In this document: piece by piece, positions 2,540 through 44,365 of the stretch | How positions within the stretch are numbered: position 1 is the stretch's first letter | Layout of the letters: the number at the start of each line of letters is the position of its first letter | NCBI GenBank assembly: GCA_021829645.1 | Contig: JAKBPI010000002.1 | Span: 83,568 to 147,567 of the forward strand | Direction of reading: 5' to 3' | DNA: 64,000 nt | Origin: Actinomycetes bacterium | GTDB taxonomy: Bacteria; Actinomycetota; Acidimicrobiia; Acidimicrobiales; Bog-793 | Translations under genes and position numbers: made by a program | Notes under the pieces: generated by a model | Databases searched by the model: none | What the model was told of the DNA's origin: nothing | What the model saw: the letters and a program-made list of their open reading frames with translations, nothing else

Positions 2540-3350
2540 ATCTTCCTCCTTGGAGATCTTATTTATGAATTATTTCCTTTTTCTTCTGACGCTTTTTAAA
2601 GTAGCGGTAACGTGCTATGACGGTACCTAAAGGTACTTTTTCGCATGAAGAAGATGGCTGGTTTCCGTTTGATATACGAGCCCCCCTCGCAATATCTCTA
2701 TGGATATTACAAAAAACTTTTTTGAAGCATTGTAGGCACCTGCCAAAAACGCTGAATTCTTGTAAACCCTCCTCTCTTAAGCGTTGAATGAATGTACTAT
2801 ATAAATAGTAAGATCTGATAGAAGTTATGTCAATATCAAATGTAGCTTTTGATCAGGTATTACTCTCGGTAACAACAATTACCACTCATAGTAATAGTTA
2901 CTCACTTTGAGTAAAATATTGAACTGTTTGTGTGATAAATTCCTGCAATAAAGATAGTATAGGCTGACCTATATGTATTATCTTAGATATAGAGAAGTAG
3001 ATAGATCATAATGCTAATCAAAGCTATCTCATATAAGTTCTTTGTATCATATGTGTTTATGAGGCATTAATCGTAGTAAATTGCAGATAAGTTTTTATAT
3101 AAAAGTTTTTAATAATCTATTTTTTAGTTGTTTTCATATATAAAAATTTATTGTAAGCAAGTTACAAAATAAAGCAATATAGTAATGAGTCATATCAGAA
3201 TTTTTCCAAAGCAGTACTTTACTGCCTCGTTTTCTTGACGAGCTGTCGCAATTTTTATTTGCATAGTAAGTTGTGCTCTGGATGTATTTGATTTTGGAGA
3301 ATCAGGATGGGGAGTAGTCTTTACTGACTCCTTATTGCTACACTTAATGT

Positions 3351-3548
3351 ATGAGGCATTTTCTTGGTATACCTGCCGTGATATGGATTGGTCAACTCGC
3401 ATATGTTGTGGTAGCTTTAGCGCTTTTGACGGTATTGCTAAAAAATATCAAGCCCGCCAATAAGACCCAGTTTATAGGACTTTATGTTATCGCTATGGTG
3501 GCCTTGAACGTAATGTGGCGAATCGCGGTATCCCGCTTTTTGAGGTAG
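3351..3548 (+). CDS. Possible small membrane protein (65 aa, two hydrophobic segments)
   Basis: The ORF encodes IPAVIWIGQLAYVVVALALLTVLL and FIGLYVIAMVALNVMW stretches. No recognisable family. It lies at the edge of an AT-rich spacer. Confidence 0.25.
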   Translation: MRHFLGIPAVIWIGQLAYVVVALALLTVLLKNIKPANKTQFIGLYVIAMVALNVMWRIAVSRFLR

Positions 3549-3662
3549 CCGTAGATGTAAACAATTGCAGGTATGGTATGTCTTCACTGGGAGAAAACTT
3601 TTTATCTGTTCCGGTTAGGGGAGTCGTTACCGCGAAGACATTTTTTGCTGTATCGTTTTATT

Positions 3663-4940
3663 ATGGTTTCTTCATTTGTTAGTGATGCCAATTTTTCTGA
3701 AGGGAATTTGTCCTTTCTTGGCGAAGACGTAAAAAAAGCCTCTGCTGTACTGCGTAAAACGGACAGTGCTACCAGAGACATGGCTTTGACGTCAGCGGCT
3801 GAAGCACTTCTGGAAGATTCCGGAGAAATCATCAAGGCGAACAAAATCGACGTGGAGGCGGCTAAAGCTGCCGGACAGACTGATACTGTCGTAGACAGGT
3901 TGCGCTTGGACGAGACACGAATTGCCAAAATGGCTTCGGCTATTAAGGATGTGGTCGCCCTGCCTGATCCTCTTGGTCAGGTTGTCTCTGGATGGGTTAG
4001 GCCAAACGGTTTGCGTGTAAAAAGAGTAAGAGTACCTCTTGGCGTGGTAGGCATAGTCTACGAAAACAGACCAAATGTGACATCAGACGCCGCCGCTCTC
4101 TGCTTGAAGTCTGGAAATGCCGTTATGTTGCGCGGGAGTGCCGGAGCTATTAACTCTAATGTAGCCATAGAAAAGTCGTTGCGTGTCGGTCTAGAGGCAG
4201 CCGGTCTACCTTTGTCAGCCATTACGTTGATAAAAGACGTGAAACGCGAAACCGTGGCGGACTTTGTGCGGCTAGATAAGTTTATAGATTGTCTTATTCC
4301 CAGAGGTGGCCCCGGACTCATCAAATTAATTAAAGAGAATGCAACCGTGCCCTATGTCATAGATGGTGATGGCAACTGTCATGTTTATGTAGATAAAGAT
4401 TGTGACTTAGAAATGGCCATAGACATAGTAGTAAATGCCAAGACAAGTCGTCCGGGCGTATGTAACGCCATGGAGACACTGCTACTGCACAAAGACATAG
4501 CCGAGCAATTTCTTACCATGGCCGATACTCCATTAGCCGGGGTAGAGTTGCGGGGTGATGATGCGAGTCGATCCGTTTTGTCGAGAATGCTGGAAGCGAC
4601 CGAAGACGATTATGCAAGAGAGTTCCTTGATCTTATTATGGCGGTTAGGGTGGTAGATGACATCGATATGGCCATTGAACACGTTAATAAGTATTCCAGC
4701 GGACATTCGGAGGCCATAATAACCAACGACTATAAGGCGGCAAGTAAGTTTATGGCAGAAGTGGATGCCGCCGCTGTACTGGTCAATGCCTCTACTCGCT
4801 TTATCGATGGAGGAGAATTGGGTTTGGGTGCCGAAATAGGTATATCCACCCAAAAACTGCATGCCAGGGGTCCTATGGGTGTGGCAGAACTGACGTCTGT
4901 AAAATTTATTGTAGAAGGTAACGGTCAGGTCAGGAAGTAG
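3663..4940 (+). CDS. proA: Gamma-glutamyl phosphate reductase (glutamate-5-semialdehyde dehydrogenase)
   Basis: Full-length ProA-like sequence with the catalytic-Cys region RPGVCNAMETLLLH. I placed the start at the internal ATG 3663, which gives 425 aa, the usual ProA size. The ORF is open from 3573. Confidence 0.9.
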   Translation: MVSSFVSDANFSEGNLSFLGEDVKKASAVLRKTDSATRDMALTSAAEALLEDSGEIIKANKIDVEAAKAAGQTDTVVDRLRLDETRIAKMASAIKDVVALPDPLGQVVSGWVRPNGLRVKRVRVPLGVVGIVYENRPNVTSDAAALCLKSGNAVMLRGSAGAINSNVAIEKSLRVGLEAAGLPLSAITLIKDVKRETVADFVRLDKFIDCLIPRGGPGLIKLIKENATVPYVIDGDGNCHVYVDKDCDLEMAIDIVVNAKTSRPGVCNAMETLLLHKDIAEQFLTMADTPLAGVELRGDDASRSVLSRMLEATEDDYAREFLDLIMAVRVVDDIDMAIEHVNKYSSGHSEAIITNDYKAASKFMAEVDAAAVLVNASTRFIDGGELGLGAEIGISTQKLHARGPMGVAELTSVKFIVEGNGQVRK

Positions 4941-5985: not shown

Positions 5986-7575
5986 ATGGCTGCATTTGAT
6001 ATGTTTACCGATTTCGTAGCCGAACTTAAAAGATCAGATATTCCCGTTTCGGTTGTGGAAGAAATAGAGTTGGCTAAGGCCCTTGAAATGATAGATCTTT
6101 CCTCTCTGCTCGAGTTGAAATATGCCATGATGGCTACCCTCATTAAATCTTCTGCCCACATAGAAGTGTTTGAGCTGTTATTCGCAAAGTATTTTTCTGT
6201 TTGGCAGTCGGTTGGGCATGAAAGTCTTGCCGAGGCAGTGCTTCTTCAGGACTCAATGTTTAGCTCTTATCGCTCCCGTCTTGCTGAGAACCAAGGTTTC
6301 CAAAATGGATATTACGATGCAAATCTCAACCACAGAGACCGTTTGGATATAAGTCATAGTGAGTTAGAGGCGGCTAAAAGAATCCTTTTGGAAGCCATCT
6401 TGTCCGGTGATGAACGAGCAATAGCGTTGCTGGCAAAATCATTGGCGGCAAAGCTGTCGAATGTGGCATCTGAAAAAATCATTTCTAATTCATACTACCT
6501 GTCGCTTTTTTCGCGGCTACTTGGCTTGGATGAGGTTAAAAGACTTTTAGGCATAGCCATCGCTTCTCTTGGGCAGCCACAAAGACCTGACAAAGGAAGC
6601 GATGAGCTTACTTCACTGTCGGACTCTTTATCGGAAAAGCGGATCAAAGAATTAGCCGAGATTGCCCAATTGGGCGAAGTAGGGGCGGGTCTGCTTGCCA
6701 GAGACTTTGAGTCTATGTTAGCTAAATTTACGGCTCTGCTGAGTTCTGAAATAGCAAGCATCATCTCCGCTATCAAAAAAGACGGAGCGGAACTGCCACC
6801 CAAAACAGTAGGTAATTTTGAGTTCTTGCGTGCCGACGAGAACGAGTTGAATTTGATGAGGAAAGAATTAAAGCCTCTCTCCGGAATCTTGGCGGCCAGA
6901 CTGAAAAAAACATCTTACAGAGGTAAATACAAAAAAGTCAATTTTCATTCTACTTTTCGCAAGTCCCTTGCTACCCAAGGGGTGCCTTTCAATCTTTTGT
7001 ACAAAAGAGTCAACGCGTCAAAACCCGAGATTACCGTTATTGCCGACGTTTCTGGGTCTGTGGCCTCGTTTGCCAGGTTCAGCCTGCATTTGATAACTGC
7101 GATAGCCGATGAGTTTGACAAAGTCAACTCATTTATATTCATAGACGAGATCTTGGATGTGACAAAGCAGTCTAAGGGCAGAAAAGATTACGCCGAAATG
7201 GAAGATTTTATAGGTTTGGCCGCAGCTGCTTCCGTCAAGGGGCATTCTGACTATGGCTATGCCTTACAGGCTTTTACTGATAGATATATGAAAAACGTTC
7301 TGTCTCCGCGCACAACCGTTATTTTGCTCGGTGATGCCAGAAGTAATTATCATCCCCCCAGACCGGATTTGTTGGCTGCCATCAAAAAGCGTTCTAAGAA
7401 TCTTTACTTTATCAATCCGGAACCCAGACGCTACTGGAATACAGGAGACTCTATCGTGGACGTCTATGGAGCTGTTTGCGACAAAGTCGTGGAATGCAGA
7501 ACATTAAATCAGCTCGCTGACTTCATTGATACCTTAAGTGGACACACGGGGTCCTTCGGAGCGATTAGTCTATAG
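5986..7575 (+). CDS. VWA-domain protein, CoxE-like partner of the MoxR ATPase
   Basis: C-terminal VWA domain with MIDAS-like motif VIADVSGSV, and ILLGDARSN. ATG 5986 lies 8 nt after AGAGGG. The ORF is open from GTG 5977. Confidence 0.8.
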   Translation: MAAFDMFTDFVAELKRSDIPVSVVEEIELAKALEMIDLSSLLELKYAMMATLIKSSAHIEVFELLFAKYFSVWQSVGHESLAEAVLLQDSMFSSYRSRLAENQGFQNGYYDANLNHRDRLDISHSELEAAKRILLEAILSGDERAIALLAKSLAAKLSNVASEKIISNSYYLSLFSRLLGLDEVKRLLGIAIASLGQPQRPDKGSDELTSLSDSLSEKRIKELAEIAQLGEVGAGLLARDFESMLAKFTALLSSEIASIISAIKKDGAELPPKTVGNFEFLRADENELNLMRKELKPLSGILAARLKKTSYRGKYKKVNFHSTFRKSLATQGVPFNLLYKRVNASKPEITVIADVSGSVASFARFSLHLITAIADEFDKVNSFIFIDEILDVTKQSKGRKDYAEMEDFIGLAAAASVKGHSDYGYALQAFTDRYMKNVLSPRTTVILLGDARSNYHPPRPDLLAAIKKRSKNLYFINPEPRRYWNTGDSIVDVYGAVCDKVVECRTLNQLADFIDTLSGHTGSFGAISL

Positions 7576-7580
7576 AAGAT

Positions 7581-8594
7581 ATGAGCATATTAGTGACCGG
7601 CGCGGCCGGATTTATAGGTTCCAACTTTGTCCGCTATTACAGAGAGGCGCATCCGGAGGAAGAGATTGTCTGTCTTGACGTGCTGACCTATGCCGGCAAC
7701 TTGGAAAATCTTGAACCATATCTTTCTTCGGGAGACATAGACTTCTTTCGGGTCGACATAGGTGATTTCGACGAAGTGTCAAAAATCCTCCGGAGTAAAC
7801 AGGTAGAAACAATAGTGAACTTCGCAGCGGAGTCACATAACAGTCTGGCCGTACTCGACCCCAAGAGGTTTTTTGAGACAAATGTTTTGGGCACACAGGC
7901 TCTCTGCGAAGCCGCTTTAAAATCTTCGGTAAGCAGGCTCCATCACATCTCTACGTGTGAGGTATATGGAGACCTGGCGCTGGATTCAGACGAGAAATTC
8001 AGGGAGGATTCTCCCTATCGACCCCGTACCCCTTACAATGCCTCCAAGGCCGCTTCTGATCACGTCGTCAGGTGCTACTTTGAGACATTTGCATTGCCGG
8101 TTACGATCACCAATTGTTGCAACAACTACGGTCCGTATCAATTCCCGGAGAAGGTTATACCATTGTTTTTGTCCAGAGCTTTAGACGATCTGCCTCTTCC
8201 GGTGTATAAGTCTTCTGCCAATCGCAGGGAGTGGATACACGTTCTGGATCACTGCCGCGCTGTAGATGAAGTGCTCAAGCGTGGTGTGATCGGAGAGACT
8301 TACCACGTTGGAACAGGTAGGGAAGCCAGCGTCAGTGAAATTGCCGATTTTATTTTGAGCTTTACCGGGAAGCCCGACTCTCTGATAGAAGTAGTTCCGG
8401 ACAGACCCGGACATGACAGACGCTATCTTTTGGATTCGGAAAAAATTGCCAAAGAACTTGGCTGGCAGCCGTCGATCGAGTTCGAAAGCGGTTTAGAGGA
8501 AACAGTTGCTTGGTATACGGAGAATGAAAGCTGGTGGCGGAAACTCATCGGAAGGTCGCCCGTTGTGGAAGGTACATGGACAGAGCAAAAGTAA
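7581..8594 (+). CDS. rmlB: dTDP-glucose 4,6-dehydratase
   Basis: Extended-SDR motifs VTGAAGFIGSN and YNASKAASD. Typical RmlB length and the YAGNLENL motif. Confidence 0.9.
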   Translation: MSILVTGAAGFIGSNFVRYYREAHPEEEIVCLDVLTYAGNLENLEPYLSSGDIDFFRVDIGDFDEVSKILRSKQVETIVNFAAESHNSLAVLDPKRFFETNVLGTQALCEAALKSSVSRLHHISTCEVYGDLALDSDEKFREDSPYRPRTPYNASKAASDHVVRCYFETFALPVTITNCCNNYGPYQFPEKVIPLFLSRALDDLPLPVYKSSANRREWIHVLDHCRAVDEVLKRGVIGETYHVGTGREASVSEIADFILSFTGKPDSLIEVVPDRPGHDRRYLLDSEKIAKELGWQPSIEFESGLEETVAWYTENESWWRKLIGRSPVVEGTWTEQK

Positions 8595-8645
8595 TTTTTG
8601 TTGCCAGCCTGTCTGACTTGTCGGACAGTTCTAAATGAGGAGTTT

Positions 8646-9521
8646 ATGCGTATACTGCTAACCGGCGCCGGCGGACAACTCGGTCAGGACCTTGTGGCTG
8701 CTTTTCAACATCAGAACGAAGCAAGGCAGACAGGAAAAAGATCAGATATACTGGCTCTTTCGCGTGAACAGTTGGATGTTTCTTCGCGTGATCGGGTATA
8801 TAGCGTCTGTCACGACTACGAACCGGATGTGATCATCCATCCGGCGGCTTGGACCAAAGTGGACGAATGTGAGTCAAACCCAGAAAAAGCTTACGCTATC
8901 AATGCCTGTGGAACTAAATACTTTAGCGACATGGCCAAAACCCTGGGTGCTTATATGCTGTACGTCTCCACCGACTATGTATTTGACGGACGGAAACCTT
9001 CACCGTATGTGGAATGGGACACACCCAATCCTCTTTCAGTGTACGGTAAGTCAAAATTGGCAGGGGAACAGGCAATGGCCTCGGTTCCTTTTCATGCGAT
9101 CATCCGTACTTCCTGGGTGGCCGGTTACGGTGGGGCCAATATGGTAAAGACAGTTATGAAGTTGCTTGCGGAAAGAGAAAGTTTGCAATTCGTAGAAGAT
9201 CAGATTGGTTCACCCACTTTTACGGCCGATTTGGCCGATAAGATCTTGGAGATAACTTCAGCCAGATTGACCGGTACTTTTCACGTTACGAATTCAGGCG
9301 TTACTTCTTGGTACGAATTTGCCTCTGAGATAGCTACTCTGCTCGGCTATGGTAAAGAAAAAGTTCTTCCCGTAAAAACAGCCGACCTATTTCCTCCTCG
9401 GCCCGCTCCGCGACCGGAAAATTCAGTTTTGGATAATATGGCATTGCGTATTGAAGGTTTACGGCTTTTGCCGGACTGGCGGGAATCGCTGGCCGGTTTG
9501 GTACATCGTTTGAGAGACTAA
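8646..9521 (+). CDS. rmlD: dTDP-4-dehydrorhamnose reductase
   Basis: MRILLTGAGGQLG N-terminus and YGKSKLAGE active-site motif, 291 aa from ATG 8646. The ORF is open from TTG 8598. Confidence 0.85.
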   Translation: MRILLTGAGGQLGQDLVAAFQHQNEARQTGKRSDILALSREQLDVSSRDRVYSVCHDYEPDVIIHPAAWTKVDECESNPEKAYAINACGTKYFSDMAKTLGAYMLYVSTDYVFDGRKPSPYVEWDTPNPLSVYGKSKLAGEQAMASVPFHAIIRTSWVAGYGGANMVKTVMKLLAERESLQFVEDQIGSPTFTADLADKILEITSARLTGTFHVTNSGVTSWYEFASEIATLLGYGKEKVLPVKTADLFPPRPAPRPENSVLDNMALRIEGLRLLPDWRESLAGLVHRLRD

Positions 9522-34915: not shown

Positions 34916-36121
34916 GTGAATAATATTTTCAGAAACAATTGGCTAGAAGTTGATCTAGATGTCTACGCACAAAACGTCAGGGCCCTGAAGTCTCTCATTG
35001 GCAATTCCCGGCTGTGTGCCGTGGTGAAAGCCGACGCTTACGGACACGGGGCCGTAGAGATTTCTGCAGTTGCTTTAAAAAACGGTGCAGATATGTTAGC
35101 GGTCGCTTTGGTTGAGGAAGGAATAGTCCTTCGGGAAAATGGTATTATGGCTCCCATACTGTTGCTTTCAGAGCCGGAGCGCGAAGGTATCAGAGAAGCC
35201 GTCAACCACAATCTCATCCTTACTCTATATACGGGAAACGGGGTCAAAGCAACTGCTGAGGCCTACCGGGCTTTTGCGGATACAAAAAAGCCCTGTGGTA
35301 CGGTCGATACGGCTTTAGGGGTCCATGTCAAAATCGACACGGGAATGCATCGCGTGGGAGTGTCGGAAAGAGGCCTCCCCGATCTTTTGGATGTCATCTC
35401 TTCTTCTGGGGTATTGAAACTCGTCGGCTTTTGGAGCCATCTGGCCGTGGCTGACGATCTTGATAACCCCTTTACGGAGTTACAGCTAAAAAGATTCTAT
35501 GAAGCATACGAACGAATTGTATTGCGACATGAGATAAAGGCTAAGCCGGGGGAAAAGGTTTTGTTACACATTGCCAATTCGGCGGGGGCGATTTATCATA
35601 AGGATACCAGACTGGATATGGTGCGTTCCGGTATAGCTCTTTATGGCTATCTCCCCTCGCCATCCTGTCAACCGGAGTCGAAATCAGAGCAGGACATCCT
35701 CTCTTTGATAAAGCCCGTTCTGTCTTGGAAAACAAAAGTGCATCTAACCAGGGTTGTCAAAAAAGGAGACGCCCTCAGTTATGGTTTGCTACGCCCGTTG
35801 GAAGAGGATTCTCTGGTGGCTGTGATACCGGCCGGGTATCATGACGGGATATCCAGAGCCCTTTTTCGGGTTGGTTGCGACGTTTTGATAGGGGGTAAGA
35901 GAAGGCCTATAGCGGGTCAAGTGACCATGGACCAGATCATCGTCGACTGCGGGCGGGACGGCGATGTAATGCCGGGAGATGAAGCCGTGATCCTTGGTAA
36001 GCAGGGCAATGAAGAGATAACGGCACAGGAATGGGCCGAGAAGTTGGATACAATTTCCTATGAAATTGTCTGTGGGATAGGACCGAGAGTGCCGAGGCTG
36101 TATTTGCAGGGAAGTAGGTAA
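34916..36121 (+). CDS. alr: Alanine racemase
   Basis: PLP-lysine motif AVVKADAYGHG. C-terminal region MDQIIVDC... and ISYEIVCGI. GTG start. Confidence 0.9.
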   Translation: MNNIFRNNWLEVDLDVYAQNVRALKSLIGNSRLCAVVKADAYGHGAVEISAVALKNGADMLAVALVEEGIVLRENGIMAPILLLSEPEREGIREAVNHNLILTLYTGNGVKATAEAYRAFADTKKPCGTVDTALGVHVKIDTGMHRVGVSERGLPDLLDVISSSGVLKLVGFWSHLAVADDLDNPFTELQLKRFYEAYERIVLRHEIKAKPGEKVLLHIANSAGAIYHKDTRLDMVRSGIALYGYLPSPSCQPESKSEQDILSLIKPVLSWKTKVHLTRVVKKGDALSYGLLRPLEEDSLVAVIPAGYHDGISRALFRVGCDVLIGGKRRPIAGQVTMDQIIVDCGRDGDVMPGDEAVILGKQGNEEITAQEWAEKLDTISYEIVCGIGPRVPRLYLQGSR

Positions 36122-36208
36122 AGGTCATGTGTGAGCCTTTTGGAGACTGCGTAGTCTGTCTCTGCCAAAAGAAAAGTTTTCTTCCTCCCGCGTCTCCGGG
36201 AAACATCT

Positions 36209-36787
36209 ATGGATAAGCTGAGTTCGGAACTGACATTGTTGTCGGAGCAGGCCTCTTCCTGTACGGCATGTCGGCTTGCTCCTACCAGAAAAAACGTTGT
36301 TTTCGGAGACGGAAACTGTCTTTCCGATCTGATGGTGATAGGCGAAGCTCCGGGCAGGGAAGAAGATATTCAAGGTCTTCCTTTTGTGGGCAGATCCGGA
36401 AAGTTGTTGGGCAGGCTTTTGCTGGAAGAGATGGGGATAACGAGAAAAGATTACTATATAGCTAACATAATCAAATGTCGTCCTCCGGAAAACAGAAACC
36501 CACTTCCGGATGAAGTGGCAGTGTGTCGCCAGTTTATAGAGGGACAAATAAGCCTGATACAACCAAAAGCGATCCTCACTTTGGGCAATTTCGCCTCTCA
36601 GGCAGTTTTGGAATCCAAGGAAGGCATTACAAAACTGCGCGAACACGTATTTGATAAAGTTATAGGAAATGTAAGTCTCAAAGTTGTTCCGACTTATCAT
36701 CCTTCCTATGTCTTGAGGGCCGGTGGTATGGCTATGGCCGAAATGAGAGCAGATATAGTAAGGGCAAAAAAATTATTAGGCCAATAA
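36209..36787 (+). CDS. Family 4 uracil-DNA glycosylase
   Basis: CTACRL Fe-S Cys pair, GEAPGREED motif A, YHPSYVLR motif B. Confidence 0.85.
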   Translation: MDKLSSELTLLSEQASSCTACRLAPTRKNVVFGDGNCLSDLMVIGEAPGREEDIQGLPFVGRSGKLLGRLLLEEMGITRKDYYIANIIKCRPPENRNPLPDEVAVCRQFIEGQISLIQPKAILTLGNFASQAVLESKEGITKLREHVFDKVIGNVSLKVVPTYHPSYVLRAGGMAMAEMRADIVRAKKLLGQ

Positions 36788-36817
36788 AAACTATCATGAT
36801 GTAAGAAAATATTTGCA

Positions 36818-37414
36818 ATGATGACCATATTTCTTGAAACAGTAATAACCGGAGACGATAAAACAAAAGCTTTTGGTGCCGCTTTTGCCAAATGCGTGGC
36901 ACCACAGGATTTAATTTTACTCGTAGGAGATCTGGGAGCGGGAAAAACCACGTTTGTCTCGGGTGTCGTAAACGCGCTCTGTCCGGGGGAAGAAGCCACG
37001 AGCCCTACCTTTACATTGGTGCACAGATATCGAGGTATAGAATTTGATGTCATGCATGCCGACCTGTGGCGTTTGGATACAGAAAAAGAGATTTTGGACT
37101 TATCCATTTGGGAAGAGTTAGAAGAAGGGGCAGTAGCTTTCGTCGAGTGGGGAGACAAAGCGGGAGAGTTGCTGGGAATACCGGATTATCTGATATCTTT
37201 CAGAGAATACGAACAGACCTCTAGGCTGGTCCGTATTTTTTTCCCAATGAAGAAAGCAACAGAGAAAGATATCGCTTTGTTTTGCGATATGGCAGCCGCT
37301 GAAGCCGGCATAGGCGAGATAATGTTACAGGATAGCTCAGAGAGAGTTTCTTATGTAAAAGCGGTGTTGGAAGCGGGCGGGATCAGTGTTACAGAAAGGC
37401 AAATCGTAAAATAA
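36818..37414 (+). CDS. tsaE: tRNA t6A37 biosynthesis ATPase TsaE, with a C-terminal extension of about 45 aa
   Basis: P-loop GDLGAGKTTFVSGV, SPTFTLVH and WGDKA motifs. Confidence 0.8.
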   Translation: MMTIFLETVITGDDKTKAFGAAFAKCVAPQDLILLVGDLGAGKTTFVSGVVNALCPGEEATSPTFTLVHRYRGIEFDVMHADLWRLDTEKEILDLSIWEELEEGAVAFVEWGDKAGELLGIPDYLISFREYEQTSRLVRIFFPMKKATEKDIALFCDMAAAEAGIGEIMLQDSSERVSYVKAVLEAGGISVTERQIVK

Positions 37415-37450
37415 GTACAATTGATATGTACCTATACGATAGAGAATCCG

Positions 37451-38317
37451 ATGAATAAGCAAAATTCCAATAATGTACTGCTGGCGATAGAAACCGCTAC
37501 TTTTGAAGTAGGGGCTGCTCTTGTTATTGATGGTGAAGTTGTGGGTGAACTATCGCAACCGGCAGAGAATCGCCATGCCGAAGAACTTTTTGTTCTTATC
37601 GAACAACTGCTTATTACAGCCGGTATCCGGCTTGGGGACGTAGGTGCTTTTGCCGTGGACATTGGTCCCGGTCTCTTTACGGGACTTCGAGTCGGAGTCG
37701 CTGCCGCCAATGCTCTGGCCTATGCTTTATCTCGTCCCGTCATTGGTATATCCGGCACCTCTGTTCTTGGAGAAGCACTGCTGGGAAATCTTCCGGATCA
37801 TAACTCCGAGACTCTGGCTGTACCGGTGTTGGACGTAAGGAGGGGAGAGGTAGCTTTTGAACTGAACGGACAGTTTTTATCTGGGCCTCGGCATGCTGTG
37901 CTCGACTCCGCTACTTCAGGCGGGGTAACAGAAGGAACATTAAGCCTTGGGAGTCCAAAGTATTTTTGCCAAACCCTGGTGTCATTTATTGATCAAATTA
38001 CACGCAATAAAACCACAGACTCTGTCTTTCTGGGTGCATCCAAGGCACTTTGTCTGCTGATAGCCGGAAGTGGTGCCTACCGTTATCGTGAAACGCTGGA
38101 AAGTGATTTGAGAGATTTATTGGGTGAATATGAAAACGTTACTTTTTCGTTCGCAAAGGGTTTTGCTACTCCGCCCATATCGGTCTTGGGGGCATTGGCA
38201 TATGACCTTTTTCAAAAAGGCGGATTATCTTCCGAAGGATCTTTACAAAAGCCACTCTATTTGCGTGAAGCAGATGCCAAAGTCGGCGCTTGGAAAAATG
38301 CCAAAATCGGCAAATAG
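37451..38317 (+). CDS. tsaB: tRNA t6A37 biosynthesis protein TsaB
   Basis: LLAIETATFEVGAAL N-terminus and GPGLFTGLRVGVAAANALA motif. The start is ATG 37451 or TTG 37421. Confidence 0.75.
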   Translation: MNKQNSNNVLLAIETATFEVGAALVIDGEVVGELSQPAENRHAEELFVLIEQLLITAGIRLGDVGAFAVDIGPGLFTGLRVGVAAANALAYALSRPVIGISGTSVLGEALLGNLPDHNSETLAVPVLDVRRGEVAFELNGQFLSGPRHAVLDSATSGGVTEGTLSLGSPKYFCQTLVSFIDQITRNKTTDSVFLGASKALCLLIAGSGAYRYRETLESDLRDLLGEYENVTFSFAKGFATPPISVLGALAYDLFQKGGLSSEGSLQKPLYLREADAKVGAWKNAKIGK

Positions 38318-38753
38318 ATTTTGTATATATACATAGTTAGTTTGCAATTTAGATAAATCATTACGTGCAATATTCTAGGTAAAGATATTTTATCTATAAC
38401 TTTGAGTTAAATACTTTTACCATAAGTACCGTTGTCTCACATAAAAAAATAACTCGATAGGAAAAATTCATTTTACTTTATGATCATGGCATGCAGATAA
38501 ACAAATTGCCATTTTATAAACCTCATGATTTTGTAAGTAAAAACCAGTAGGTATGTAAACCGATCGATTCTCTGTTGTGGGTAAAAGCATCATAGAGATA
38601 TGTCAATGATACCAAAGGGGTGCTATGGAGAGTAATATGCGGCTGTTAGGGAATAGCTTACAATTGGACTCGTGTATTTCGAATATATCGCAGATCCTCT
38701 GAATCGTCCAGCAGATCTTGTATTGCTCCATAATGGGAAGTATAATGTGAAGT

Positions 38754-39566
38754 ATGGGATCTACTTCACCGGCCAAAGTGCTAAAAATCAACCTTGATCC
38801 GGTTGCAGAAGTTCATTTAAAGATGCCACCACTTGAGAAAGTGCTTGCTGATGTACGCTTTAGCCAGACACCGGAATTGATTAGCGACGAAGTTGAGCAG
38901 CTAATTTCGTCATATCTCAAAAGATATCCGGTACGTCGGCAAGTCCAGTCTGTGCGGCTTAATGTCAATCCCGTCTCTTCTTCTGTCTCACAAGAATCCG
39001 TTGTTGTCCGAACTTTTTCCGACACGGAGAACTCTTGGGTGATTACACTTTCTGCTTTTTCTGTTGGTATTTCGACAACAAGCTATCATTCCAGGGATGA
39101 TTTTTGTGAACGAGCCTACGAAGTATTTGAAGCCGTAGACCTCGTAGGCAAACCTCCCATTGTCGATCGAGTAGGCATGCGCTATATCAACCGGATTACG
39201 GATCCCTCCCACCTGTCTCGCCTTGATGACTATGTCGAACCGAGGCTGAGAGTTCTTGACGGTATTGTAGATGGAGATACTCCGATAGAATACAGTGTTT
39301 CTAATTCACTTATTCAAATCTCGGATAGCGAACGCATGAAAGTCCAGAGTGGTGTATTGCCGCCATCGGTGACATTTGACCCCGCATTCACACCTGTTGA
39401 TGCTAAATCTTGGATACTTGATTCAGACGTTTTTACTATAGGTGGGCAGATCTTATTTGAGCCGCAAGCGCTTAAAGAGCGTCTTGAGAGGTATTCTACC
39501 CATGCGTATTCTGTATTCCGTTGGGCAACAACAGCTGCTTTGCTCGAGGCTTTTAGTAAAGGGTAA
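38754..39566 (+). CDS. Uncharacterised protein resembling the TIGR04255 family (about 270 aa)
   Basis: N-terminal PPLEKVLADVRFSQTP and central VDRVGMRYINRI match my recollection of the TIGR04255 signature (PL.ev..evrF ... GlRYiN). Size also fits. Not verified by HMM. Confidence 0.55.
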   Translation: MGSTSPAKVLKINLDPVAEVHLKMPPLEKVLADVRFSQTPELISDEVEQLISSYLKRYPVRRQVQSVRLNVNPVSSSVSQESVVVRTFSDTENSWVITLSAFSVGISTTSYHSRDDFCERAYEVFEAVDLVGKPPIVDRVGMRYINRITDPSHLSRLDDYVEPRLRVLDGIVDGDTPIEYSVSNSLIQISDSERMKVQSGVLPPSVTFDPAFTPVDAKSWILDSDVFTIGGQILFEPQALKERLERYSTHAYSVFRWATTAALLEAFSKG

Positions 39567-39586
39567 CCTAGGGGAGAGATGAGACC

Positions 39587-40204
39587 ATGACGACGCTGAC
39601 TTTGGAGGAAGACTCGGTTGATACCGATTCCAGCGCGATATCAGAGAAGTATGTGAAGACATGCCTACAAATTATAGGTTTAAATGATTACAGCGCTTCC
39701 ACTGGCATTCTTCTTATTGACGATAGCGAGTTTATAATAGGACAGCAGATTAAACATATCTTAGTTGAGCGGAAAGCAAAAAAAGACTTTACCGATTTCC
39801 CTTCAGTCCTCACTGGCCTAAGGGCACGCTCCGGATTGACATGGAATGAGTTGTCATCTGCTCTCGGAGTATCCAGACGGGCACTTCACCATTGGACGAA
39901 AGGGCAAAGAATATCTGGTTTTCATATTCAACGGCTTGAGGAGTTAGTGCGCCTTATCAATAAGACGGCATGTGGTGATCGAGATCAAACACGAGCCAAA
40001 CTACTTATACCCCGAGACGATGGTCAGTCTCTTCTTTCACAATTTGCTCAAGCTTCTAAACTTCCTCGCTCTGTTCCGATCTCTCATCTAACGTTAGGTG
40101 ATTTTTTCGATGCCGAGCCTTTAGCAGAGGTTGCTGTTGTCGCTACACCCAAAAAGAGAAGTACCATACCTCCAAAGCATATTCCGCCGAGGGATAAGTC
40201 TTAG
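39587..40204 (+). CDS. XRE-family helix-turn-helix protein with flanking domains of unknown function
   Basis: Central HTH LRARSGLTWNELSSALGVSRRALHHWTKGQRIS. ATG lies 20 nt after the upstream stop and is preceded by GGGGAGAG. Confidence 0.65.
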   Translation: MTTLTLEEDSVDTDSSAISEKYVKTCLQIIGLNDYSASTGILLIDDSEFIIGQQIKHILVERKAKKDFTDFPSVLTGLRARSGLTWNELSSALGVSRRALHHWTKGQRISGFHIQRLEELVRLINKTACGDRDQTRAKLLIPRDDGQSLLSQFAQASKLPRSVPISHLTLGDFFDAEPLAEVAVVATPKKRSTIPPKHIPPRDKS

Positions 40205-40208
40205 TGTC

Positions 40209-41189
40209 ATGGATTCAATAAAGCAGAAGCAAGCAATTGAGTATGCTCGGAAAGTGCGGTCTTATATTCAAGGCGAGGTGCTTGACGCCCCCGATCTGTG
40301 TGTTGTGCTTGCATCCTCTAAATGGCCAATGCGCGAAATTTCAGAAGAAGCAGCGCAGCAGTATCAAGGGGTTGCGGATGTTGTTGTTGTCCCCGATCCC
40401 GTAGATCATGTTGTTCTCGTCACTCAAACATGTGATCTGCAAAGAACAGATGCTAACAATATGTTGTGTCAAGTGGCGCCGCTTGTCGATGTGAATGAAA
40501 AGTTTGCCTATGAAGTAATGAAGGGTAGACGACCGGGATGGGCAGCGGTTCCTTGGTATTCAAACTCAGCAGCAGTCGATTTATCCCGTATTACGACTGT
40601 CGAGCGCAGTGTTATTGCTGAGGCTCCTTCCCTTGGGCGTCCCAAAAGTCAAGATCAAAGTTCGTGTTTTTCTGAAGCGGTGAGCAGACACTTTACCCGG
40701 GTTGCTTTACCGGATGAACTTGTTGCGGTTCTCAAGCCTTTTTTGGAAGAGATTAAAAAGCGCCACGATCGCAACACACCGTTGGGAAGCTGTATTGCCA
40801 AGATCCCAGCAAGTGGCCTAAGAGTTGAGGTGGCTGAGTCTGATGGCTCAACTCACGTGCTCTTACTCGTCGTGCTTGAACCACAGGATTTTCCTGAACT
40901 TGCCCACGGAGTTGAAGTGAATCAGAAGATTGTTGACGATTTTATCCGGGAAGGTGAGACTTATGCTGCTGAGAGAGCACTTAATTTAAATAACCCGCTT
41001 TGTTGTCGGCAAGGATGGCTAGCGCTTACAGATATCTGGAGATCCTTGATTATCAAAGTGATTGAGGATAATGAATATAATATGACTTGCGATGTAGAAG
41101 TGCTTTCTGGCTATGAAATGAATTTTACGCGTCTTTGCAATTCCTCAGAACTTGATCTAGCTTATTTGAGTACGAGAGGTGACCTATAA
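40209..41189 (+). CDS. Hypothetical protein (327 aa), no recognisable domain
   Basis: ATG lies 4 nt after the upstream stop. Contains VVLVTQTCDLQR and CCRQGW. No P-loop or obvious catalytic motif. The ORF-track start at 40131 would overlap the HTH gene. Confidence 0.6.
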   Translation: MDSIKQKQAIEYARKVRSYIQGEVLDAPDLCVVLASSKWPMREISEEAAQQYQGVADVVVVPDPVDHVVLVTQTCDLQRTDANNMLCQVAPLVDVNEKFAYEVMKGRRPGWAAVPWYSNSAAVDLSRITTVERSVIAEAPSLGRPKSQDQSSCFSEAVSRHFTRVALPDELVAVLKPFLEEIKKRHDRNTPLGSCIAKIPASGLRVEVAESDGSTHVLLLVVLEPQDFPELAHGVEVNQKIVDDFIREGETYAAERALNLNNPLCCRQGWLALTDIWRSLIIKVIEDNEYNMTCDVEVLSGYEMNFTRLCNSSELDLAYLSTRGDL

Positions 41190-41323
41190 GCCATTGCCGT
41201 TAAACAGCTAAAGTATTAAAACAGTTCCTATGTCTCATTGTTAAGTCGTTACCCATAAGGTAATTGTCAAAAGTACAGTTAGCTGAATGCTGCTTTTATA
41301 TCTTCAGGAGTCAAGTAACTTGA

Positions 41324-41911
41324 TTACTTTCCGGATTCAACCCAAAACCTATTTAAAGCAGACTGTACTTTCACAAACCATACTATGGTACCAAGAAGAG
41401 GTAATAGGAACCAAAGACCTGTTGTGCTTCGCACAGGGGAGTATTTCCCTTGGAGCGAATAGGCTTTTTCAATTTCATAAGGAAAAATAAAAAAAGCCAC
41501 GGGAGAAAGGAAAAACCATAGCAGTAAAGCTCCAACCCCGCTCATACCTCGACCGGTAGCACTTTTAAGTTCGTCATTGACAGCATATGCCCAAAACAAG
41601 CTATAGATTCCTAAGGTAACAATATACAATAAAATCATTATCCCTACCGGTCTTTCTTTACCCACAGAAGTCCTTGCAGCCGAAGGGCTTGGGGGTGGCA
41701 TGGTTGCAGTGGCAACCCCGCTATTTTCAATGGACCGAAGTTGATTTTCCTGACCGGTTGAGATTTGGGATGACTGTCCGGCAGAGGATTCGTAATCTAC
41801 CGAACTTACTGAAGCAGGGGTAGAGGACACAGAGACTTGCGCTCCGCAATTGGTACAAAAAAGTGAACTGCCGGACTCATAGCCCGTACCGCACTTAGAA
41901 CAAAATGGCAC
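41324..41911 (-). CDS. Zinc-ribbon protein with a DUF4234-like membrane domain
   Basis: CSKCG...CTNCG double Cys pairs at the N-terminus, a Ser-rich linker, then hydrophobic ILLYIVTLGIYSLFWAYAVNDELK typical of DUF4234. Confidence 0.7.
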   Translation of the reverse strand: MPFCSKCGTGYESGSSLFCTNCGAQVSVSSTPASVSSVDYESSAGQSSQISTGQENQLRSIENSGVATATMPPPSPSAARTSVGKERPVGIMILLYIVTLGIYSLFWAYAVNDELKSATGRGMSGVGALLLWFFLSPVAFFIFPYEIEKAYSLQGKYSPVRSTTGLWFLLPLLGTIVWFVKVQSALNRFWVESGK

Positions 41912-42705
41912 TCGATTACCCCCTATTGGTTTATGACTTGTAGTGATGATACATACACTTTAAGTCACTACAAAAATAATTGAAGCCAGTTTACTAACCA
42001 GTAAATATCTTGTCAACAATTAGGATAAAAATTTATGATCACATTGTATTAAGTTGTGCTATGTGGAATAGGGCAATTTTTGGAGTTGCAACAAATCAAT
42101 ATGACTGAGTTATAGTATATCTCTACATGCATTGCTATACAAATTTGTAACTTTTATATAACCTAAATAGGTATTTGATTTTCTATAAAACACATGACGT
42201 CTATCATAGATTTTTACAGTCCACTGGATCTATAGTAGTAAAAGAGAAGAGCAGATATTAAGAGATGAGGAATGATCTGCTTTTGTCTATGCACAACTGG
42301 GATTTAGAGCGAGACTTCTTTGCGAATCGATTTTAGCCACACCCCTAAAAATGAGTGTTGTATGTCAACCTAGTGTATAAGTGTTGGGAGTAGTCAATTA
42401 GACAAAGCTTGCCCGGTCTTATTCATATTGATGTGCAATTGTCATTTGGGGTCAATTTTATACGGGCAGAGTGTGGGACAATCGATATATGCGGCTATGA
42501 AGTTGAGTAGTGATTTTGTTGTTTAGAGAGTAATTGGTATGCCGGCTAAAAATTTGTAACCTTCCTAGATCGGGGTACAATACAGAAGAACCGGTATGCT
42601 AAGTAGAACGGCTGTGAATTTTGCACTATACTAAAAGGTCACAGGACAACCCGTGTCTATGGCAGAAAGATGCTTATGTAATCGGGTGATTTAAAAGAAG
42701 TCTAA

Positions 42706-43317
42706 GTGGATCTGTTAAAATCTGTCAAAATCAATTCGCAACTTTTACCCGAGACAGGCAGGGAATACGTTTTGCGTATTGCCAAGATGCGCCAGTCACA
42801 CGTAAAACAGGTACTTCTGATCGAGAGGGAAGTTTTCCCCAGGCCGTGGACTGCTGTGATATATGCCAGCGAACTAAGTCAGCCGGAGACTCGCAGCTAC
42901 TACGTTGCCAAGATAGGTCGACACGTAGTCGGTTACGCCGGGTATATGGTCATATCGGGTGAGGCGCATATCACTACTCTGGCAGTTAACCCAAAGTGGC
43001 AACACAACCATATCGGAATGCTACTGCTGTTCCGTCTTTTGAGCGATGCCACCGGGATGTCCCTTGAGGCAGCCACTCTTGAGGTGAGAGCCAGTAACGT
43101 AGCGGCTCAGAAGCTTTATTTTAAATTTGGTTTTACTCCTGCCGGCATCAGAAAAAATTACTATGCCGAAGTGAATGAAGATGCCATAGTAATGTGGGCG
43201 GAAAATTTGCGGTCGGCAGAATATGCCGAAAGATTGAAATCATTGGGTGCATATCTACAGGAAAAGCTCTCCTTAGAAGGGGATTTGGAGTATAAGGCCC
43301 TTGTGAGGGTCAAATAA
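42706..43317 (+). CDS. rimI: Ribosomal-protein-alanine N-acetyltransferase
   Basis: GNAT fold motifs (IEREVFPRPW, ITTLAVNPKWQHNHIG, LEVRASNVAAQKLYFKFGF). The start is GTG 42706 or ATG 42787. Confidence 0.8.
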   Translation: MDLLKSVKINSQLLPETGREYVLRIAKMRQSHVKQVLLIEREVFPRPWTAVIYASELSQPETRSYYVAKIGRHVVGYAGYMVISGEAHITTLAVNPKWQHNHIGMLLLFRLLSDATGMSLEAATLEVRASNVAAQKLYFKFGFTPAGIRKNYYAEVNEDAIVMWAENLRSAEYAERLKSLGAYLQEKLSLEGDLEYKALVRVK

Positions 43318-43324
43318 GAATAAT

Positions 43325-44365
43325 ATGAAAGGCATGACAAGCGTTTCGGACACAGCGGGAAAGCCACCCGTCTCTTTGGTGTTGGGAATAGAAACTTCCT
43401 GCGATGAAACAGCGGCTGCCGTCGTAAAAGACGGTCGGAAAACGATCTCCTCTGTGGTCTCAAGCCAGATAAAACTCCATGAAGATTTTGGGGGAGTTGT
43501 GCCCGAGATCGCTTCTCGCTCTCACCTGGAATCAGTTATTTACGTAGTGAAGAAAGCGCTTTTGGAAGCCGGCTTGGATGACACCGGCAGCGGAGTGGAC
43601 GCCGTGGCCGTTACCAACGGTCCTGGCCTTATCGGTGCTTTGCTGGTGGGACTTTCGACCGCAAAAGCACTGGCCATGGCTTGGGGAAAACCTTTTATTG
43701 CCGTCAATCATTTGGAAGGTCATCTTTACGCGGCATTGCTCGAGAACGAAGACTTTGCCATGCCGGCAATCGTGGAGCTTGTCTCTGGCGGTCATACCCT
43801 AATTATTTTTATGGAAACCTTGGGCAAGTATCACATTATCGGCTCCACGGTAGACGATGCGGCCGGAGAGGCTTTTGATAAAGTGGCAAGGTTTTTGGGT
43901 CTTGGATATCCCGGTGGCCCTGCCATAGAGCGGATAGCCGCTCTGGGGGATGAAAGTGCAGTCGGATTTCCGCAGCCCATGCTCAACCAGGGTTTAAACT
44001 TATCCTTCAGTGGTTTAAAAACAGCCGTGGTGAATTTTTATAAGCAAAATCCAGACTTTTCCATTCCGGACATAGCGGCCTCTTTTCAGCGCTGTGCGGT
44101 AAATGTACTGGTCTCTAAAGCCGCAGCTGCCGTCAAAGAGACGGGGGCCAAAAGCATCTGTCTTGCCGGAGGGGTAGCGGCAAATTCTTTACTCAGAGCC
44201 GAAACGGAAGCAGCGGCTAAAACCCTTGGAGTCTCTTGCTATTTACCTTCCAGAGCCATGTGTACCGACAACGCGGCCATGATCGCCGCCGCCGGTTTTC
44301 ACAGACTCCAAGCCGACGGAGAGTCGTCTCTTGCCGTCGGTGCTGCTGCCAATTTGAGACTTTAG
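43325..44365 (+). CDS. tsaD: tRNA N6-adenosine threonylcarbamoyltransferase
   Basis: LGIETSCDETAAAVV, NHLEGHLYA and SGGHT motifs. 346 aa. Confidence 0.95.
   Translation: MKGMTSVSDTAGKPPVSLVLGIETSCDETAAAVVKDGRKTISSVVSSQIKLHEDFGGVVPEIASRSHLESVIYVVKKALLEAGLDDTGSGVDAVAVTNGPGLIGALLVGLSTAKALAMAWGKPFIAVNHLEGHLYAALLENEDFAMPAIVELVSGGHTLIIFMETLGKYHIIGSTVDDAAGEAFDKVARFLGLGYPGGPAIERIAALGDESAVGFPQPMLNQGLNLSFSGLKTAVVNFYKQNPDFSIPDIAASFQRCAVNVLVSKAAAAVKETGAKSICLAGGVAANSLLRAETEAAAKTLGVSCYLPSRAMCTDNAAMIAAAGFHRLQADGESSLAVGAAANLRL

Follow-up and report, generated by a model that had tools for sequence, protein, structure and literature searches.

A three-gene cassette encoding a TIGR04255 protein, an Xre-type helix-turn-helix protein and a protein with a predicted MazF-like domain: a candidate mobile toxin-antitoxin or defense module

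What might be the function of three tightly coupled genes that are found together, in the same order, on plasmids and chromosomes of distantly related bacteria? The question is raised by a locus in a stretch of 64,000 nucleotides (the window, in what follows) from an Actinomycetes bacterium of the Acidimicrobiales (assembly GCA_021829645.1, contig JAKBPI010000002.1, positions 83,568 to 147,567), the sequence of which also matches the metagenome-assembled genome (MAG) GCA_027323855.1. The three genes, which I will call g1, g2 and g3 (Table 1), encode respectively a protein of the TIGR04255 family, a protein with a helix-turn-helix (HTH) of the Xre type, and a member of an uncatalogued protein family. 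An earlier note, made from the sequence of this locus, took them for a single operon and for a candidate conflict or toxin-antitoxin-like system. The answer I favor, tentatively and with chances that I put a little short of even, is that they constitute a mobile three-component toxin-antitoxin or abortive-infection module, with g3 as effector, g2 as antitoxin and repressor, and g1 as accessory sensor or stabilizer. I come to this reading because the genes are tightly coupled and strictly co-inherited, because they are spread sporadically across phyla and carried by plasmids and islands, and because g2 is a fast-evolving protein resembling MbcA and HigA while g3 has a predicted domain of the CcdB/MazF fold.

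The physical arrangement is that of an operon. All three genes run in the same direction, with 20 nt between g1 and g2 and 4 nt between g2 and g3, as read directly at the junctions, and in most other loci with these genes the stop and start codons overlap by 4 nt. The tight operon proposed in the earlier note is thereby confirmed, the more so as 24 further independent loci have the same order. Its positions and spacers are also correct, except that the product of g3 is 326 rather than 327 amino acids long. (The open reading frame (ORF) as called mechanically begins at TTG 40131, and alignments with homologues favor ATG 40209.) The motifs it pointed to were all located: PPLEKVLADVRF and VGMRYINR in g1, GLTWNELSSALGVSRRALHHWTKGQRIS and AKLLIPRDDGQSLLSQF in g2, and VVLVTQTCDLQR in g3.

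The order g1-g2-g3 was found in the window and in all 24 of the further independent loci whose third gene is related to g3, a count that covers sampled loci with enough sequence. Of the results of the analysis this conservation is the strongest. Hidden Markov models (HMMs) built from each protein identified g1, g2 and g3 once each per locus, in order and on one strand; in two metagenome loci the upstream genes were assigned from size and order alone. A lack of conserved co-occurrence would have told against the proposal, and what was found is decisively the opposite: the triad is present in every sampled locus with a g3-related third gene. The arrangement is not due to chance, as each of the three ORFs has homologues and their order is repeated elsewhere.

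The loci come from Actinomycetota, Cyanobacteriota, Alphaproteobacteria and Gammaproteobacteria (counted here as four phyla), and the sample includes ten actinobacterial loci from metagenomes or MAGs and five more distant metagenome loci. Plasmids carry the triad in Kocuria rosea, Paenarthrobacter ureafaciens, Chroococcidiopsis thermalis, Gloeocapsa, Sinorhizobium americanum, Rhizobium etli, Sphingomonas paeninsulae, Acinetobacter baumannii, Vibrio furnissii and Pseudomonas luteola. All seven plasmid matches of the g1 from the window have the full triad, and a scan of genome contigs with narrow search patterns gave seven loci. On plasmids as a whole the triad is rare (about 16 of 72,556), and complete genomes of Escherichia coli gave no nucleotide match to the triad from Vibrio. 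The three proteins appear to have diverged in concert, judging from pairwise identities over 18 loci, which are correlated among the three with Pearson coefficients of 0.89 to 0.96. Mean identities over the same loci are 0.37 for g1, 0.33 for g3 and 0.27 for g2, the most divergent of the three.

An identical g3 protein (P0053) occurs, each time with its own g1 and g2, at positions 8001-8981 of locus L016 and 8001-8981 of locus L017, in unrelated chromosomal contexts, with one copy lying directly downstream of two tyrosine recombinase (integrase) genes. These duplicate contexts are evidence of recent transposition or integration. The cassette is mobile as well as strictly syntenic across phyla, and of the traits expected of type II toxin-antitoxin systems it has co-directional, tightly linked genes, inheritance as a unit and horizontal movement. 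It is not phage-borne, since scans of PHROGs and tblastn searches of phage sequences gave no match for g3 and just one weak match for g1, in an unannotated contig of 6.8 kb.

The neighbors of the triad vary by locus, and no neighboring gene is constant. Within about 6 kb there are mobile-element genes (integrases, IS4, IS110, ISAba1, relaxase/MobC, genes of type IV secretion systems and DNA methyltransferases, as well as an actinomycete integrative conjugative element, or AICE, with RepSA/FtsK), toxin-antitoxin genes (HepT/MNT, PemK, HigB with an M78-HTH protein, and Fic), and genes related to defense (SLATT, a multiubiquitin/ThiF/DUF6527 system, a DpdE-like SNF2 helicase and PDC-S01). The helicase, a protein of 1,134 amino acids encoded at positions 810-4214 of locus L001, lies directly upstream of the triad and matches the PADLOC model of DpdE with an E-value of 5.9e-215; DpdE is a component of a 7-deazaguanine DNA-modification system. 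At locus L006 a convergent gene of 326 codons (6954-7934, minus strand) shares about 30 nt with the 3' end of g3; it matches nothing in Pfam or PADLOC, nor the HMM of g3, and it adjoins an integrative element of the AICE type (RepSA, FtsK/SpoIIIE).

If the cassette is a toxin-antitoxin module, one of its products should be an effector, and the predicted fold of g3 offers a concrete candidate. At the level of sequence there is nothing to go by: Pfam, NCBIfam, PADLOC (at E-values up to 1), PHROGs and the sequences of the PDB contain no match to g3, its profile finds nothing in the PDB at E-values up to 10, and 40 members of the family (the protein of the window and 39 distant relatives) have no relevant annotation from Pfam or PADLOC, PF02452 (PemK_toxin) being matched by none of them. 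The family is large, with 126 close clusters at 90% identity, uniformly of about 326 amino acids, and 1,142 representatives at 50% identity (E-value at most 1e-3; 840 at most 1e-10).

The AlphaFold2 model of g3 (predicted local distance difference test, pLDDT, 93.8; predicted template-modeling score, pTM, 0.81) consists of an N-terminal barrel like that of MazF and PemK, a helical linker and a C-terminal alpha/beta domain. The top 28 matches of a Foldseek search of the PDB are all toxins of the MazF/PemK/YdcE/MoxT type, with probabilities from 0.87 to 1.00, template-modeling (TM) scores normalized to the target of 0.48 to 0.67, and E-values from 2.3e-3. By this model the N-terminal domain is an SH3-like barrel of the CcdB/MazF fold, and the view that gene 3 holds no recognizable motif beyond a beta-strand-like one has to be given up for its N-terminal half. 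To my knowledge, the CcdB/MazF/PemK fold is otherwise found mainly in toxins.

The family has conserved residues of its own. Q21-G22, C75-D76, R164-x3-P168 and a C-terminal D..LS tail are kept among homologues at 12-25% identity, and the conserved set may be written QG(D/E), [ST][QD]xCD and R-x3-[FL]P; in the second motif there is no variation at C75 and D76, and hardly any at Q73. Some of these motifs may be collinear with those of MazF, if QGEV is paired with RGDV, VVLLTQTCD with RPVLVIQND and ADLSRITTVERS with LLEQIRTIDKQR. The QxCD motif was also considered as that of a cysteine protease, a reading rejected because the alignments contain no invariant His.

The position of g2, immediately upstream of g3, is where an antitoxin might be expected, and g2 is antitoxin-like in build. 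The Xre-type HTH reported earlier for gene 2 is borne out by a match to PF01381 at 26 bits (cut-off 23) over residues 78-119, a domain matched as well by 10 of 11 orthologues of g2, among which S82, L84, S96, R97, R98 and W103 of the HTH are invariant. C-terminal of the HTH a segment of the form TR..LL.P...G.S is conserved. A profile of the 11 orthologues, compared with the PDB, matches MbcA (6fkg_C, E-value 9e-5), HigA2 and the Xre/MbcA/ParS-like protein 8qnl; the alignment to 8qnl, which is collinear but below significance, continues across the conserved TR..LL.P segment. When g2 is compared by hhalign with an antitoxin annotated as MbcA/ParS/Xre on a Chroococcidiopsis plasmid, 80 columns align collinearly, again below significance (E-value 0.011, probability 4%). 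The resemblance to Xre/MbcA/ParS antitoxins that the earlier note saw in gene 2 is weakly supported by these profile matches, but not by the family models considered below, and the matches point to an antitoxin-like build without demonstrable membership in a family. PADLOC models are matched by g2 only at the level of the HTH (mad1 and RmrA, E-values of at least 0.007). A search for homologues of g2 retrieved just two proteins, because the gene evolves fast, and the orthologues were taken instead from the triad loci.

The N-terminal 70-90 residues of g2 are a variable extension. In most actinobacterial orthologues, and in the loci L001, L006, L008, L009, L016 and L019, it contains a hydrophobic stretch of about 20 residues rich in Ala, Gly and Thr (e.g., RKFIACVLMAGCAVTGTLATVTPADA), located at about residues 30-60, N-terminal of the HTH. 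The stretch looks like a signal or transmembrane segment, but a transmembrane reading was rejected, as the positive-inside rule would then place the HTH outside the cell, and for this reason the stretch is more plausibly bound by a partner.

Such a stretch brings to mind systems of toxin, antitoxin and chaperone (TAC), in which case g1 would be a chaperone of an aggregation-prone antitoxin g2, and g3 the toxin. The translational coupling of g1 with g2 would suit this arrangement, as would fold matches, weak ones, of g1 to the EspG chaperones. The latter, however, have TM-scores below 0.2, no similarity of g1 to SecB was found in sequence searches or among the top 50 fold matches in the PDB, and of the hydrophobic stretch the g2 of the window has only a degenerate form, and those of L023, L025 and L027 have none. 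I consider a TAC-like system very doubtful.

There is no ambiguity regarding the sequence family of g1. It matches the NCBIfam model TIGR04255 at 112.9 bits (cut-off 30; E-value 2.2e-32) over profile positions 2-251 of 252, as the earlier note had suspected from motifs. The residues invariant in g1 include Y58, D116, R120, R143, Y144, R147, D209, W220, D223 and R256. Beyond TIGR04255 it has no match in Pfam, in PADLOC (E-values up to 1), in PHROGs or among PDB sequences, profile searches included, and a search of the literature found no mention of the family.

The AlphaFold2 model of g1 (pLDDT 87.4) shows two tandem beta-alpha-beta4-alpha units; no internal repeat was detected at the level of sequence when the two halves were compared by hhalign. 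Fold matches in the PDB are weak (TM-scores of at most 0.3) and fall on S-adenosylmethionine decarboxylase (AdoMetDC), EspG chaperones, TATA-binding protein (TBP), a phage S-adenosylmethionine lyase and START/PYL proteins. In BFVD the best match is an unnamed viral protein, followed by TBPs of giant viruses and VETF-like factors. That unnamed protein, A0A515MGR4, of 202 amino acids, matches the model with an E-value of 5.7e-8 and TM-scores of 0.43 (query) and 0.55 (target), which suggests that some viruses encode a fold related to that modeled for TIGR04255. The model would place g1 in the TBP-like or helix-grip class of folds, and I claim no relation closer than that. Folds of both kinds are typically binding modules, and characterized TBP domains other than those of TBP itself occur as single copies (PMC3597702).

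One locus departs from the rest. On the plasmid pCB3060_2 of Rhizobium sp. CB3060 (locus L033, 3995-6168) the genes that come after TIGR04255 are two unrelated ones, of 288 and 218 codons, that have no HTH, no match to the HMM of g3 and no match in Pfam. The TIGR04255 gene adjoins a multiubiquitin/ThiF/DUF6527 cluster and an IS110 element. This plasmid suggests that TIGR04255 may be modular and able to take different partners.

That g1 may work with other partners is one of several considerations that would favor an exchange of roles, with g1 the effector or toxin, g3 a sensor or adaptor, and the MazF-like barrel a binding module. Of the three proteins g1 is the best conserved (mean identity 0.37), the polar and aromatic residues that it keeps invariant are numerous and would be fitting in an active site, and the canonical catalytic residues of MazF are not evident in g3. 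Nonetheless, g1 has no match to an enzymatic fold, what weak matches it has in the PDB and BFVD being to binding proteins (TBP, EspG, START/PYL), and the CcdB/MazF fold is one that I know mainly from toxins. Operons of the Xre-RES type have the antitoxin gene first and then the toxin gene, and g2 followed by g3, tightly coupled, agrees with that order. The exchange of roles is quite unlikely.

The toxin-antitoxin or abortive-infection module, with g3 as effector, might then work as follows. The cassette would be a self-contained, horizontally mobile addiction or abortive-infection module expressed as a single operon. Through its N-terminal domain of the CcdB/MazF/PemK fold, g3 would act on the cell, and g2 would serve both as antitoxin and as autorepressor, its HTH being followed by a partner-binding segment as in Xre/MbcA/ParS antitoxins. 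The third subunit, g1, translationally coupled to g2, would sense a trigger, either nucleic acid or a small ligand, or alternatively would stabilize g2 by way of its hydrophobic N-terminal stretch. When g2 is lost or sequestered, or when a signal arrives through g1, g3 would be freed and the cell arrested. Which of the proteins is toxic, the step of neutralization, the role of g1 and a phenotype of phage defense are all matters that I infer from the patterns described. A broader proposal may also be considered, that TIGR04255 proteins in general are TBP-like sensors with two repeats, which recognize foreign nucleic acid or a ligand and use an MbcA-like antitoxin to control an effector of the MazF fold, and which, being modular, are able to pair with other effectors, forming an immune or addiction system of several phyla that has escaped recognition. 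I regard this as somewhat unlikely.

Candidate signals for expression of the operon are present in the sequence (Table 1). The candidate -10 box ends 7 nt ahead of the ATG of g1, and an mRNA of g1-g2-g3 starting from this promoter may be leaderless. The candidate promoter was missed by a consensus scan because its -35 box agrees with the consensus at just 3 of 6 positions. The perfect inverted repeat at the start of g1 has a score equaled in 1 of 100 shuffles of a region of 150 nt, and it is a suggestive candidate for the operator of the HTH protein g2.

Table 1. Positions of the genes, domains and candidate signals of the cassette. Positions are those of the window, counted from its first nucleotide.
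Feature	Position	Strand	Description	Basis
g1	38754-39566	+	270 aa, ATG start; TIGR04255 family protein	ORF list and junction reading
g2	39587-40204	+	205 aa, Xre-type HTH protein; antitoxin- or repressor-like	ORF list and junction reading
g3	40209-41189	+	326 aa, ATG start; uncatalogued family, candidate effector	ORF list and homologue alignments
Shine-Dalgarno sequence GGGGAGAG for g2	39571-39578	+	Strong; inside the 20-nt spacer, 8 nt before the ATG of g2	Sequence reading
Candidate promoter	38718..38746	+	TTGTAT 38718-38723, 17-nt spacer, TATAAT 38741-38746	Sequence reading
Perfect 8-bp inverted repeat GTGAAGTA-N7-TACTTCAC	38747..38769		Spans the start codon of g1	
HTH motif of g2	39818..39943	+	Residues 78-119	Pfam HTH_3 envelope
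Predicted MazF/PemK-like fold domain of g3	40266..40643	+	About residues 20-145	Limits inferred from the secondary-structure string
TQTCD motif of g3	40422..40436	+	Residues 72-76	Alignments

In the window, the cassette lies inside a stretch of 4.4 kb between tsaB, which ends at 38317, and rimI, which begins at 42706. The wider order of genes (34916-38317 and 42706-44365) is alr, a gene like that of uracil-DNA glycosylase, tsaE, tsaB, the island, rimI and tsaD. The genes tsaE-tsaB-rimI-tsaD ordinarily form one contiguous operon, and for this reason the triad, together with a divergent gene that follows it, looks like an insertion into the tsa operon. This divergent gene (41324-41911, minus strand) encodes a protein of 195 amino acids in which an N-terminal zinc ribbon is combined with a DUF4234 membrane domain (PF14018, E-value 4.5e-12); it is probably separate cargo, because no other triad locus has it. 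The same g3 is present on 13 contigs, and in the two places displayed the downstream neighbors are identical.

The earlier description of the locus as an AT-rich island is correct for the flanking noncoding DNA, which has a GC fraction of 0.40 at 38001-39000 and of 0.40-0.42 at 41001-43000, but not for the three genes (0.45-0.47), which are near the 0.44-0.53 typical of the window. The 436 nt from tsaB to g1 (38318-38753) are AT-rich and contain a single ORF, of 62 codons, on the minus strand (38603-38791), overlapping the start of g1. Upstream of rimI lie about 800 nt (41912-42705; GC about 0.40) with neither an ORF of at least 50 codons nor a match in Rfam, which could be left over from the inserted element or could serve rimI-tsaD as a long regulatory region. 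Scans of the island found no RNA family (Rfam), no tRNA and no convincing boundary repeats.

A number of observations weigh against a toxin-antitoxin or abortive-infection module, some of them concerning g3. The link to MazF is one of fold only, at modest Foldseek E-values (at least 2e-3), and since about one third of g3 is covered, the TM-score normalized to the query is at most 0.25. An hhalign comparison of g3 with a small alignment of MazF (including one sequence from L006) gave a nonsignificant probability of about 1%; its best local match, ADLSRITTVERSV of g3 with LLEQIRTIDKQR of MazF, is the same equivalence that the fold match predicts. The catalytic Arg and Thr/Ser of Bacillus subtilis MazF are R25 and T48, and a mapping at the level of motifs, as distinct from a structural alignment of residues, finds no invariant Arg of g3 at the position of R25. 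The Arg/Thr pair appears, from the alignments, to be replaced in g3 by a different conserved set of Q, C, D and R, and because the pair is not evident I do not attribute to g3 the RNase activity of MazF. Furthermore, both g3 (326 amino acids) and g1 (270 amino acids) are large for a classical type II toxin.

Other such observations concern g2 and the known families. The Xre-like-HTH model PF20432 scores 16.4 bits with the g2 of the window, under the cut-off of 25.8; it matches 7 of the 11 orthologues (best E-value 1.4e-4), matches that I read as under the cut-off. The toxin-binding domain PF09722/DUF2384 is absent from scans, at E-values up to 1, of the g2 of the window, its orthologues and eight distant homologues. 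Nor is there a toxin partner of the RES/ART type: g1 and g3 have no RES match in Pfam, NCBIfam or PADLOC, and neither MbcT nor ParT is among the fold matches. No system model of PADLOC-DB v2.0.0 is matched by the proteins of the cassette, g2 matching at the level of the HTH only, in agreement with the statement made earlier that the cassette matches no named system. The palindrome at the start of g1 has no consistent counterpart across 18 other triad loci. The copy in the window is surrounded by housekeeping genes, and the figure of about 15 in 20 tallied loci with mobile or conflict-related neighbors comes from a qualitative tally without a control set.

Some of these same facts would be at home in another explanation, that the cassette is a nontoxic accessory operon of mobile elements, with a regulatory or sensory task, made up of an HTH regulator and two proteins that bind ligands or nucleic acid; control of the transfer of the element, exclusion, or a response to stress are possible roles. 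In keeping with this, none of the three proteins matches an HMM of a toxin, a nuclease or a defense protein, several copies of the triad adjoin conjugation or relaxase genes, other copies are in ordinary chromosomal contexts (the window, L017, L018 and L025), and the TBP-like and helix-grip folds, as mentioned, are typically binding modules (PMC3597702). An operon of this sort would be expected to have something to regulate, but the triad has no constant neighbor, and its sporadic distribution, jumping from phylum to phylum with identical copies in different contexts, does not suit such a role. The fast evolution of the middle gene, the overlaps of 4 nt, and the combination of a predicted MazF-type fold in g3 with an HTH protein resembling MbcA and HigA do not suit it either. 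For these reasons (the spread, the fast g2, the overlaps, the fold and the type of HTH) I favor toxin-antitoxin or defense cargo over a regulator specific to the element, and consider the nontoxic operon unlikely.

How does the cassette compare with known systems? The closest are two: Xre-RES/MbcAT, in type of antitoxin, order of genes and plasmid bias, and MazEF/CcdAB, in fold of the effector. Like the Xre-RES, MbcA-MbcT and ParS-ParT pairs, the cassette has an Xre-like HTH antitoxin gene (as I read it) immediately upstream of its partner and coupled to it, MbcA is the best match of the g2 profile among solved structures (E-value 9e-5), and the cassette shares with the COG5654-Xre modules a sporadic distribution and a propensity for plasmids (PMC2701414). 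Unlike them, it has as partner a 326-residue protein with a predicted MazF-like N-terminal domain, it has an obligatory third gene upstream (TIGR04255), and its g2 has an N-terminal extension of 70-90 residues, fails the threshold of PF20432 and gives no PF09722 in any scan. The system GndRX (PMC12457610) was considered as a relative and set aside, as it is an ordinary RES-Xre pair and irrelevant to the cassette.

The likeness to MazEF, PemIK and CcdAB consists in the top 28 fold matches of the N-terminal domain of g3, all to the MazF family, and in the collinearity of motifs. The differences are that g3 has no membership at the level of sequence (no PF02452, and about 1% by hhalign), that it is three times longer than MazF, with the additional helical linker and C-terminal domain, that its conserved residues are Q73 (nearly invariant), C75, D76 and R164, and that the antitoxin of the cassette would be of the Xre type and not a classical MazE, PemI or CcdA. 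With tripartite systems (the TAC system HigB-HigA-SecB, HipBST and paaR-paaA-parE) the cassette shares three co-transcribed genes that include one for an HTH protein, and a third component that plausibly modulates antitoxin or toxin; however, none of its three proteins is homologous to theirs, g1 is not SecB-like, and the accessory gene comes first.

The combination of a helix-grip or TBP-like protein with an HTH protein in a sporadic mobile module has a parallel in ArsR-COG3832 (the latter of the START/AHSA1 helix-grip type), predicted by Makarova et al. (2009; PMC2701414) to form two-gene modules of toxin-antitoxin type. The families differ (TIGR04255 rather than COG3832, Xre rather than ArsR), the cassette adds a third gene, and ArsR-COG3832 modules are enriched on chromosomes (PMC2701414), whereas the cassette is found on plasmids, so the likeness is one of analogy, not homology. 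As to the TBP superfamily, g1 is modeled with two tandem beta-alpha-beta4-alpha units and has TBPs of giant viruses, VETF-like factors and human TBP among its fold matches, but the TM-scores are 0.2-0.43, there is neither similarity in sequence nor an internal repeat, and AdoMetDC, EspG and START proteins score alike.

Searches of the literature and databases found no description of the triad, and the cassette is probably an undescribed toxin-antitoxin or defense module of new composition. It presents no surprise of principle, and I regard it as a solid candidate for a widespread three-gene conflict module, one directly testable because of its strict synteny. If the idea is true, TIGR04255, a family annotated across bacterial genomes, would acquire a functional context, and g3 would define a large uncatalogued family (more than 1,000 clusters) in which the CcdB/MazF fold is set in a new architecture with a new set of residues. 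The repertoire of plasmids and integrative elements, including plasmids of clinically relevant Acinetobacter and Vibrio, would then gain a new three-component module.

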